Shown in pieces: positions 7,151 through 10,381 of a DNA stretch of 64,000 nucleotides. Location of the stretch: positions 3,552,001-3,616,000 of the forward strand of contig CM000152.2 of the NCBI GenBank assembly GCA_000004695.1. Reading direction: 5' to 3'. Both the position numbers and the translations under genes were made by a program. The stretch comes from Dictyostelium discoideum. Lineage: Eukaryota. The notes under the pieces were generated by a model. That model searched no databases, was not told the DNA's origin, and worked only from the letters and a program-made list of their open reading frames with translations. Position 1 is the stretch's first letter. Every line of letters starts with the position of its first letter.

Positions 7151-10100
7151 TTATTGTTGTTGGTAGTGGTGGTATTGAGGTTGGTATTGTTGTTGTTGTT
7201 GAAATTGAAATTGAGGTTGTGGTTGTTGATATTGTTGTTGGTAGTGGTATTGGGGTTGGTATTGTTGTGGTTGTTGGTAGTGGTGGTATTGAGGTTGGTA
7301 TTGTTGTGGTTGTTGATATTGTTGTTGGTATTGTTGTTGGAATCGTGGTTGAGATTGGTGAAGTTGTTGAAGATGTTGTTGGATTTGTTGTTGTTGTTGC
7401 TCAACTCTTTGTTGTTGTAGGGATTGGTAATATTGTTTATACAAAGTGTATAGAGACATTGAGGTTTGAGAGCCATCATTTCTTCTGTATGTTACACCAG
7501 TTTTAGATACTGTCATGAATTCACAATCAGGTGGAGCAAGTTTTAAACAATCAAAAGTAAGATTATCAATTTTCAATTGATCAGGGGCAGCTGGAACATT
7601 ACAAATTGGGCAATTCCAAAGTTGAATTTTTTGACAATGTTTTAAATAATTCTTAAATATTTTTTTTTTTTTTTTTTTTCAATTATTAATATTATTATTA
7701 TTATTATTATTATTATTATTATTATTATTATTATTATTATTATTATTATTATTATTATTATTATTATTATTATTATTATTATTATTATTATTACTACTAT
7801 TATTATTATTATTATTAATATTTAATATACTTACTCTTAAATCAAAACACTGATGGTGAGTGCAATTTTCTGATTTTATTGGAAGAATCATTCTACTATT
7901 TTTTAAAATACATCTAACTGTTATATTAAAGGGAAATACAGTATTATTATTATTATTATTATTATTATTATTATTATTATTATTATTATTATTATTATTA
8001 TTATTATTATTATTATTATTTTCACTTCTATTTAATTTTCTTTGTAAATAATTATCTCTAAGCTCTTTGAAAAGAGATCTAAAAAATTCAAGTCCATCAC
8101 CTTTATCTCCACGCGAACCATTATTGTTGTTACTTTTATTATTTACTGTATTTATGTTTGTGGCTGTAGCTGTAGTTGTAGTTGTAGTTGTGGTTGTGGT
8201 AGTGGTGGTTGTAGTTGTAGGTGTAGGTGTAGGTATAGGTGTAGATGTAGATGTAGGTGTAGGTGTAGGTGTAGGTGTATTTGTATCAGAATCAGAATCA
8301 GAATCAGAATCAGAATCAGAATCAGAATTTGAATTTGAATCAGAATCAGAATCAGAATTTGAATCTGAATTTGAATTTGAATCAGAATTTGAATCAGAAT
8401 TTGGATAACCATGAGTTTTATTAAATTTTTCAATGATTAAATTCATTATTTCAACTTTTGGTTTATATTCTAAGAGTTGAAAATCAAGTATACCACTACA
8501 ATTTGGAATATTCATTTTTATACTATTGCCACCTGGAAATATTAAAAAGGATATATCAATTAGGTCTTGAATTATTAATGGATTTTCAATTGGAAATAAA
8601 AGTTTTTCAAATTTCTTTGAATTATAGTTTATACCATTGATGGTTAAATTCATACTTGAATCATAAGGAATATCCTTTCCAGTGATTCTATCATATAATC
8701 TTAATTGAATTGAAAATTCACAAAAAATACCATCATCACTTTCAAGTTTTTTAAGAATATAACGAGTTCTATCTTCAACTTCTTGTTCAAATCTTTGATT
8801 TCTTTTAACTTCTTCATCTTCAAATTCATTATCAAATTCATCATCAAGTTCATTTTCAATTCTTTGTTGATGTTGTTGTTGTTGTTGCTGTTGTCTTTGT
8901 TGATGATATTGACATTGATATTGTTGACATTGACATTGATATTGTTGGCATTGACATTGTTGACATTGATAGTGTTGACATTGGCATTGATATTGTTGAC
9001 ATTGATATTGTGGAATTTGAGTTTGATATAATCTAAAAAGCTGATGATGTTGTGATTGTAATTTTGTAATATATTCATTGTTTTGGGTATATTGTTCATT
9101 TTGTTCAATTTGTAATTGTTCAATTTGTTGTGGAGAAATTGTTTGAATTCTTTGTTGACTTTCTCTATTTTTTGTATATTGTCTTTGTAATTCTTGTTTG
9201 AATTGTTCAGTTTTATCATACAAATTACTGATGTGTTGTGATAATTGAATGGTTAATTGTGTCTTTGGTACCAATAATTGAGTTTTTTCAAACAATCTAC
9301 AGATTTGTTTTTGTAGTTGTTGAATTAATTGTGAATGTTGAATTAGTTGAAGATGTTTTATTGATTCTTGTCTACACTTTTTAGATTGAGATATTTGTTC
9401 TAATCTTTTTAGTTGAAGTGATTTCTTTACCACATCATATACAACTGGATCAATATAAAAAGAAGTATCAATAGTTTCATTAAATTCAATTACACTTAAA
9501 TGAAGTGGAATTCCATAATTTGGTGGTTGAGAATCATTATATCTTTCATTATTTTCTAATTGAATTATTAATCTATCACTTTTACTAATTTCACCTTCTC
9601 TATCACTGTCACTTTCATTTTCATCTTCACTTTCATTTTCACTTTCACTTTCATTTTCATTTTTATTTTTATTTTCATTTTCACTTTCATTTTCATTTTC
9701 ATTTTCATTTTCTTTTTGATTTTGATTTTGATTTTCTTTTTTTTCAATAGCATAACCATCAATTTCACTTTTTTTAGTATTTAAAAATTCAATTACCTCT
9801 TCTTCATTTTGTTTTTGCTGTGATTTTTGACTTGATTTATCATATGGTTTATATCTTTTTATTTGGGAATCTATCAATTTATTATTATTATTTTTATTAT
9901 TATTATTATTATTATTATTATTATTATTATTATTATTATTATTATTATTATTATTTAAATTTATATTTTTATTATTATTTTTATTATTATTTTTATTTAA
10001 ATTATTAATTTTATTATTTTTGCAGGTTGGAATAGTGGTGGTAGAAGTGGTATTGGTGTCCAAACCCAATTCATTGAAAAGCTGTTTAAAAAATTTTCCA

Positions 10101-10381
10101 TAATAATCATTTGAACTTTGGGATGCTTTGTTATTATTATTATTATTAGAATTATTATTATTATTAATATTATTATTATTATTATTATTATTGGCATTGG
10201 TGTTGGTATTGGTATTAGTGTTGGTGGGTTTTGGAAATTTTGGCTTAAGGAAAGGAAAAAACAAAAAAAAAAAAAAAAAAAAAAAAAAAAAAAAAAAAAA
10301 AAAAAAAAAAAAAAAAAAAAAAAAAAAGGTTAGTGAAATTGTTATACCAAAAAATGAAAAAGTAAAATAAATACTTACCAT
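7151..10381 (-). CDS. PIAS-family SUMO E3 ligase (SP-RING/MIZ zinc finger, PINIT-like region), about 970 aa. Exon 1 is 10381..10379 (ATG only), intron 10378..10244, exon 2 is 10243..7835, intron 7834..7652, exon 3 is 7651..7151.
   Basis: CILKNSRMILPIKSENCTHHQCFDLR (exon 2) + NYLKHCQKIQLWNCPICNVPAAPDQLKIDNLTFDCLK (exon 3) reconstitutes the SP-RING signature. The PIAS consensus is C-P-x7-10-C-x2-CxHxQCFD...W-x-CP-x-C. The 900-aa ORF ends in TGA at 7679 inside an (AAT)n tract. Donor GTAAGT at 7834 and acceptor TTTAAG|AAT at 7653/7651 restore the frame. ATG|GTAAGT at 10381 with acceptor CTTAAG|CCA at 10244 removes the poly-Phe artefact of the poly(A) tract. Upstream PINIT-like block: NPLIIQDLIDISFLIFPGGNSIKMNIPNCSGILDFQLLEYKPKVE. 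There are long poly-Asn/poly-Gln and (CQ)n tracts. Confidence 0.8.
7652..7834 (-). other. 183-bp intron composed largely of an (AAT)n microsatellite, splitting the SP-RING zinc finger
   Basis: (ATT)n on the plus strand spans 7681..7797. Without this intron the zinc finger loses its CPxC half. Confidence 0.7.
10262..10327. repeat. Pure poly(dA) tract of about 66 nt inside intron 1 of the PIAS-like gene
   Basis: Direct reading. It produces the spurious poly-Phe/poly-Lys ORFs at 10118..10370. Confidence 0.9.

Follow-up and report, generated by a model that had tools for sequence, protein, structure and literature searches.

The closest described relatives of the gene reported here are the SUMO E3 ligases of the Siz/PIAS type, i.e., yeast Siz1 and Siz2 and human PIAS1-4, which have a full zf-MIZ/SP-RING finger with zinc ligands in the pattern C-x-H...C-x-x-C. 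In our literature search, no specific description of a Dictyostelium PIAS or SP-RING gene was found. We have analysed a stretch of 64,000 nucleotides (nt) of Dictyostelium discoideum DNA (NCBI GenBank assembly GCA_000004695.1, contig CM000152.2, positions 3,552,001 to 3,616,000 of the forward strand), which is called the window below and is numbered from its first letter. At 7151..10381 it holds a locus that we take, with a confidence of about 90%, to be one minus-strand nuclear protein-coding gene with two spliceosomal introns, whose product of 970 amino acids (aa) is a Siz/PIAS-type SUMO E3 ligase with predicted activity. The finger of this product is complete and shows the same ligand pattern as its relatives, and the second intron lies within it.

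Both introns can be compared with what is known of the genus. In D. discoideum, a spliced gene has 1.9 introns, the mean intron length is 146 nt, and simple-sequence repeats make up 11% of the genome, with 1,436 of them exceeding 100 base pairs (PMC3188802; PMC9234386). In D. giganteum, introns average 130 nt, and AAT and runs of A or T rank with the most frequent kinds of repeat (PMC13487327). Since these published figures match, introns of 135 and 183 nt with runs of T and AAT, as found here, are typical. Like ordinary D. discoideum introns, they are short, extremely rich in adenine and thymine, and bounded by GTAAGT and AG. The difference is one of placement, not of kind: here the repeat fills ~77% of the second intron, in frame, and sits inside a catalytic zinc site.

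The SP-RING join and the gene structure

The SP-RING (zf-MIZ) finger is encoded in two halves on the minus strand. The first half (7835..7924, residues 775-804 of the spliced protein) contributes the Cys and His ligands (C-T-H), and the second half (7595..7651, residues 805-823) contributes the C-P-I-C ligands; that is, the junction lies inside a single zinc site, with C-x-H from exon 2 and C-x-x-C from exon 3. Between the two halves stands intron 2 (7652..7834, minus strand), 183 nt in phase 0, with boundaries GTAAGT...TTTAAG and a guanine plus cytosine (G+C) content of 3%. The modelled junction of exons 2 and 3 reads ...GATTTAAGA|AATTATTTA....

The preliminary description of this stretch, made from its letters, had proposed that the joined sequence should match zf-MIZ. 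It does so clearly. The spliced product matches the Pfam family zf-MIZ (PF02891) over residues 775-823, a match that takes in profile positions 1-49 of 50, and scores 68 bits as a whole 970-aa protein and 73.3 bits as the isolated region (expectation value E = 1.3e-20), where the curated cut-off of the family is 33.5 bits. The unspliced read-through reaches 44.6 bits and covers profile positions 1-35 only. In addition, phmmer has matched five solved structures (Siz2, PIAS2, Siz1, a Siz1-Smt3 fusion, and PIAS3) with E values of 1e-10 to 1e-8, and the printed alignments to Siz2, PIAS2 and Siz1 run ungapped across the junction ...CFDLR|NYLKH.... The SP-RING identity of the joined product is thereby upheld by the zf-MIZ match together with the gap-free alignment to solved Siz/PIAS relatives.

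A HMMER scan of 1.84 billion representatives returned 2182 homologues at E ≤ 0.001, and the four zinc ligands (C332, H334, C355 and C358 in the numbering of the test region) are invariant in an alignment of 41 homologues. The similarity continues past the RING into a stretch resembling the SP-CTD, which aligns to Siz1 and Siz2: the alignments to Siz2 (6u75) and Siz1 (3i2d) extend to query residues 86-88, and many of the HMMER matches among those listed reach query residues 88-100. A word-indexed protein search gave 2 candidates for the 111-aa SP-RING query and 8000 candidates, raised by low-complexity words, for a 405-aa query, none of them significant in either case.

The remainder of the gene can be laid out as follows, all on the minus strand. 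Exon 1 (10379..10381) consists of the ATG alone, preceded by AAAATAAA. Intron 1 (10244..10378) has 135 nt, boundaries GTAAGT...CTTAAG, 13% G+C and a T65 tract (10263-10327) upstream of the acceptor. Exon 2 (7835..10243; 2409 nt, 803 codons) opens with CCA AAA TTT and closes with ...TGT TTT GAT TTA AGA (...CTHHQCFDLR), and the modelled junction with exon 1 reads AAAATG|CCAAAATTT. It encodes, in order, a low-complexity N terminus, a conserved middle region, a repeat rich in Gln and Cys (Q/C-rich), a PINIT-like region and the first half of the SP-RING. Exon 3 (7151..7651; 501 nt, 166 codons plus a TAA stop at 7153-7151) opens with NYLKHCQKIQLWNCPICNV... (AAT TAT TTA AAA CAT TGT...) and encodes the second half of the SP-RING, the SP-CTD-like stretch to ~7472, and a Q/Y/P-rich tail.

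The three-exon model of the preliminary description is borne out almost to the base. Two details have to be corrected, i.e., the homopolymer in intron 1, given there as 66 nt, has 65 nt by direct count (10263-10327), and the stop that ends the reading frame had been placed inside the (AAT)n run, while the TGA at 7681-7679 falls just past the array. A continuous open reading frame (ORF) of 900 aa exists because the length of intron 1 is a multiple of three and the intron holds no stop codon.

Conservation of the two introns

For comparison, the syntenic region was fetched from eight other assemblies by using the neighbouring aqpC gene as the anchor. These are a D. discoideum assembly nearly identical to the window (L001), two other D. 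discoideum (L010 and L012), two D. cf. discoideum (L009 and L011), and one each of D. citrinum (L007), D. dimigraforme (L008) and D. firmibasis (L006). The halves of the SP-RING are split at the same codon boundary in all nine genomes, and the intervening sequence is always GTAAGT...AG. The lengths of intron 2 are 183, 183, 72, 70, 88, 92, 97, 83 and 73 nt. As these lengths fall into all three classes modulo 3 (0, 1 and 2), only splicing preserves the downstream frame. Moreover, in eight genomes no stop, insertion or deletion interrupts the 44 codons that lead from the acceptor to the first ATG in the downstream ORF, and changes at third positions predominate in these codons when compared with D. 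citrinum and D. dimigraforme. The ratio of non-synonymous to synonymous substitution rates (dN/dS) is ~0.3-0.5 against most of the closer relatives, and 0.74 against one D. cf. discoideum genome.

Tandem Repeats Finder places a period-3 array of 47 copies with 95% matches at 7682-7822. Its longest perfect run is (AAT)34, and AAT accounts for 43 of the 61 in-phase triplets of the intron. Beyond the in-frame TGA, an A20 tract (7660-7679) takes most of the 27 nt that are left before the acceptor. The AAT expansion occurs only in the window and in the near-identical assembly, with an intron of 183 nt against 70-97 nt elsewhere, and in the rest of the D. discoideum and D. cf. discoideum genomes the intron has only a few AAT units. 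Variation of the repeat length had been predicted and is indeed seen within the species, where the intron has 183 nt here and 70-72 nt in two further genomes of D. discoideum. It had also been claimed that the repeat length would directly affect the catalytic finger. Of this, the variation in length holds, but the repeat is intronic and leaves the protein untouched unless splicing is affected.

The position of intron 2 appears much more widely distributed than its repeat. At the same position (CFDLN|YFIRF), a distant homologue (P0021, 675 aa) on L013, from the assembly GCA_000787575.2, which we take to be Acytostelium subglobosum, has an 85-nt intron that contains TACTAAC and has a G+C content of 45%; it is followed by the same 12-residue spacing to W-x-C-P-x-C. 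Since this ordinary intron lies at the same codon boundary, intron 2 is old, and the microsatellite in it is recent.

An A-rich tract, with A runs of ~8-29 nt, stands just 5' of the intron 2 acceptor in all nine genomes; unlike it, intron 1 carries the expected T tract.

Intron 1 has been followed in the same way. All 9 genomes keep its position. In each of the eight related loci of Dictyostelium, the ATG runs directly into GTAAGT, GTAAAT, GTAATT or GCAAGT; the genes of D. firmibasis and D. dimigraforme likewise begin with ATG|GT. In the seven genomes measured, its lengths are 78-135 nt with all modulo-3 classes represented, and in five of these seven a read-through is broken by a stop or a frameshift. 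As the first exon of the L013 homologue is normal, the ATG-only arrangement is confined to the D. discoideum species group. Many yeast ribosomal-protein genes have an intron directly after the start codon, and the present gene is similar to them in that the first exon gives only the ATG to the coding sequence. It differs from them in being a gene for a regulatory enzyme, with an arrangement conserved only in the D. discoideum species group. Our literature search yielded nothing specific on ATG-only first exons in Dictyostelium.

Some further features of intron 1 were observed. Tandem Repeats Finder reports an A run at 10256-10327. In one D. cf. discoideum genome (L011), the donor is GC (ATG|GCAAGT), and the length of the annotated product still equals that of the spliced model. 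For the T run, the window has 65 nt and the near-identical assembly 42 nt; the two sequences are 99.5-99.7% identical, with differences mostly in homopolymers, and the difference in the T run is either real slippage or an artefact of the sequencing platform.

The public annotations give another line of evidence. The annotated products of L010 (1085 aa), L012 (1073 aa), L009 (991 aa), L011 (1049 aa) and L007 (926 aa) correspond exactly to ATG plus exon 2 plus exon 3, and the 852-aa product annotated in D. firmibasis also equals the three-exon model. That is, six independent public annotations agree with this model by product length. Within D. discoideum, the coding low-complexity tracts differ widely from strain to strain and give products of 970, 1085 and 1073 aa.

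Overall, the two introns have GT/AG ends, their removal restores a conserved frame, and their lengths drift at a fixed position, as expected of spliceosomal introns. With positions kept across genomes, lengths mostly not multiples of three, and six matching annotations, the proposal that both introns are real has stood up well.

Protein class and genomic neighbourhood

In the protein, the SP-RING and the SP-CTD can be clearly recognised. We class it, on the evidence of its sequence, with the Siz/PIAS-type ligases, as a divergent member in which no SAP domain is detectable and for which ligase activity is predicted. In canonical family members, a PINIT domain occupies the region before the RING. 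When residues 509-606 of the spliced protein (8429..8722, minus strand) are compared by hhalign with the pre-RING region of 40 PIAS/Siz homologues, they match over 96 columns with a probability of 82% and E = 1.1e-5, and the upstream region aligns to the C-terminal two thirds of PINIT. In a MAFFT alignment, the Dictyostelium ...LTING... and ...LIDIS... fall on the columns of V-N-G and P-I-N-I-T, respectively; trimmed segments were used for this alignment, as a run with the 40 full-length PIAS homologues had misplaced the PINIT-like region.

An AlphaFold2 model of the PINIT-like region, built on the PINIT-domain alignment, has a predicted local distance difference test (pLDDT) value of 78, and Foldseek ranks PIAS2 and PIAS3 highest for it, with template modelling scores (TM-scores) of 0.51-0.55 and a probability of ~1.0. 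Because the input alignment consisted of PINIT domains, this model means compatibility and is no independent proof. The single-sequence AlphaFold2 model of the same region is unusable, with a pLDDT of 42.

In several respects the protein departs from its Siz/PIAS relatives. The PINIT-like region lies below Pfam detection and ~170 residues from the RING, with S/D/N, T/P and poly-N tracts between them. The protein also has a long N-terminal half specific to Dictyostelium, partly Q/C-rich, in addition to the Q/Y/P-rich tail. The other known class with an SP-RING-type finger is Nse2/Mms21, which is not known to have a PINIT-like region or an SP-CTD, while the gene described here has both a PINIT-like region and an SP-CTD-like stretch. 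An identity as Nse2/Mms21 was rejected, as the score against zf-Nse (PF11789) is 12.6 bits, below the cut-off of 27, compared with 73 bits against zf-MIZ.

Two other parts of exon 2 deserve mention. Residues ~223-420 (9580-9000, minus strand; SDRLIIQLENNERYNDSQPPNYGIPLHL...) are conserved in the Dictyostelium orthologues and have no Pfam match; a Q-rich stretch, probably a coiled coil, comes after this region. At 8900-9010 on the minus strand, the coding sequence holds a Gln/Cys/Tyr repeat (QYQCQQYQCQCQHYQCQQCQCQQ...), whose periods are 15 and 36 nt. Its Cys residues occur in D. discoideum genomes only, and in the orthologues of D. cf. discoideum and D. citrinum their place is taken by QY or poly-Q.

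The window as a whole has a G+C content of 21%. The ORF at 15052-15876, a neighbour of this gene, matches D. discoideum aquaporin C (AqpC, Q54V53) exactly. Elsewhere in the window there are ORFs of the TgrO1-like/TIG, FNIP-repeat, DnaJ-X and kinase types. Among them, two paralogous ORFs on the minus strand (26410-28857 and 35080-37581), ~6 kilobases apart, encode TgrO1-like proteins with Ig and IPT/TIG domains and have long identical stretches in common. A gene for the transfer RNA (tRNA) tRNA-Lys(UUU) at 22246-22318 (minus strand) is the sole tRNA and the sole Rfam match in the window.

Alternative readings and significance

In the explanation that we propose, the pre-mRNA would be spliced as ATG|CCA..., which removes the T-rich intron of 135 nt, and a second splice, ...GAT TTA AGA|AAT TAT..., would remove the phase-0 intron of 183 nt from within the SP-RING zinc site. 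Intron 2 is ancient, as an intron of ordinary sequence in the distant homologue indicates, and its AAT-rich interior would have expanded by replication slippage to ~47 units in the lineage of this strain, with the mature mRNA left unchanged. ORF finders and some gene predictors run through both introns, because both are multiples of three here and (AAT)n resembles the common poly-Asn coding sequence.

What was directly observed is how the sequence is built, that its product matches the domain, that position and frame are conserved, and that other public annotations agree; splicing in this strain and SUMO-ligase activity of the protein are inferred. Several observations weigh against this explanation. 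Against Pfam, the 970-aa product gives no match to PINIT at E ≤ 1 and none to SAP, which the canonical homologues P0076, P0093 and P0046 do carry. SAP is absent from some accepted members of the Siz/PIAS family, and for this reason we have not treated its absence as disqualifying. Exact look-ups of the 970-, 900-, 855-, 121- and 1015-aa models in the protein collection found none of them. For exon 3, dN/dS against D. firmibasis is ~0.95. Furthermore, the orthologue of D. dimigraforme shows an internal deletion, by which ...PPNYGIPL runs directly into ENPLIIQD...; the middle region is missing, together with the first half of the PINIT-like region. A T run ahead of its SP-RING also carries a 1-nt frameshift. 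This damage is either gene decay or an assembly error. Hence the gene evolves fast and may be dispensable in some lineages.

An improbable alternative supposes that the AAT expansion impairs the splicing of intron 2, so that many transcripts retain the intron and yield a truncated ligase without Cys-x-x-Cys, which would make the allele a hypomorph or an incipient pseudogene. The confinement of the expansion to the window and the near-identical assembly (183 nt against 70-97 nt) agrees with this supposition, as do the fast evolution of the gene and its damaged state in D. dimigraforme. In addition, a CTAA-containing sequence stands just past the donor in the remaining four genomes of D. discoideum and D. 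cf. discoideum, and the intron of this lineage has TATTAAA in its place. However, 183 nt is near the mean D. discoideum intron of 146 nt (PMC3188802), the GTAAGT donor and the AG acceptor are intact, and all three exons are open, with the same sequence in the window as in the near-identical assembly. We consider it improbable that the ~110-nt expansion private to this lineage makes intron 2 inefficiently or conditionally spliced. If true, the strain would make a mixture of full-length ligase and truncated half-finger protein with a poly-Asn tail, and an intronic microsatellite would amount to a strain-specific change in the dosage of a SUMO ligase.

Even less probable is the existence of two separate genes without a second intron, that is, an upstream protein with half an SP-RING and a poly-Asn tail, and a Q-rich protein of 121 aa starting from the ATG at 7516. 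This is in fact how the near-identical assembly is annotated: one product, of 855 aa, reads through the repeat as far as the TGA, and another, of 121 aa, begins at the first downstream ATG. Poly-Asn tails, too, are common in D. discoideum proteins (PMC3188802). But such an arrangement leaves the 44 conserved SP-RING codons at 7651-7520, with the W-x-C-P-x-C half, unannotated and unexplained, although they are free of stops, insertions and deletions in eight genomes. The downstream half also stays intact although, in 7 of the 9 genomes, the sequence between the two halves causes a frameshift or contains stops; the six other annotations join both parts, and half of the domain scores far lower against zf-MIZ. 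The split annotation was probably caused by the resemblance of the in-frame (AAT)n to a poly-Asn coding sequence. It provides an actual case of the failure of ORF-based annotation to which the preliminary description had pointed. As to a gene on the plus strand, it was rejected, since the plus-strand ORFs here are only translations of low-complexity repeats.

Returning to the single three-exon gene, its introns, its repeat and its protein family are all of known kinds, and it adds little as biology. Its value is mainly practical, as it supplies a corrected three-exon model for a gene that is split in the near-identical public assembly. A proteome built on the split annotation would be without an intact copy of this SP-RING ligase. 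The strain difference in the length of the intronic repeat is as expected for a genome with 11% simple repeats. More generally, in-frame AAT-rich introns mimic poly-Asn coding sequence and are read through by gene predictors, which constitutes a general hazard in the genome of D. discoideum.

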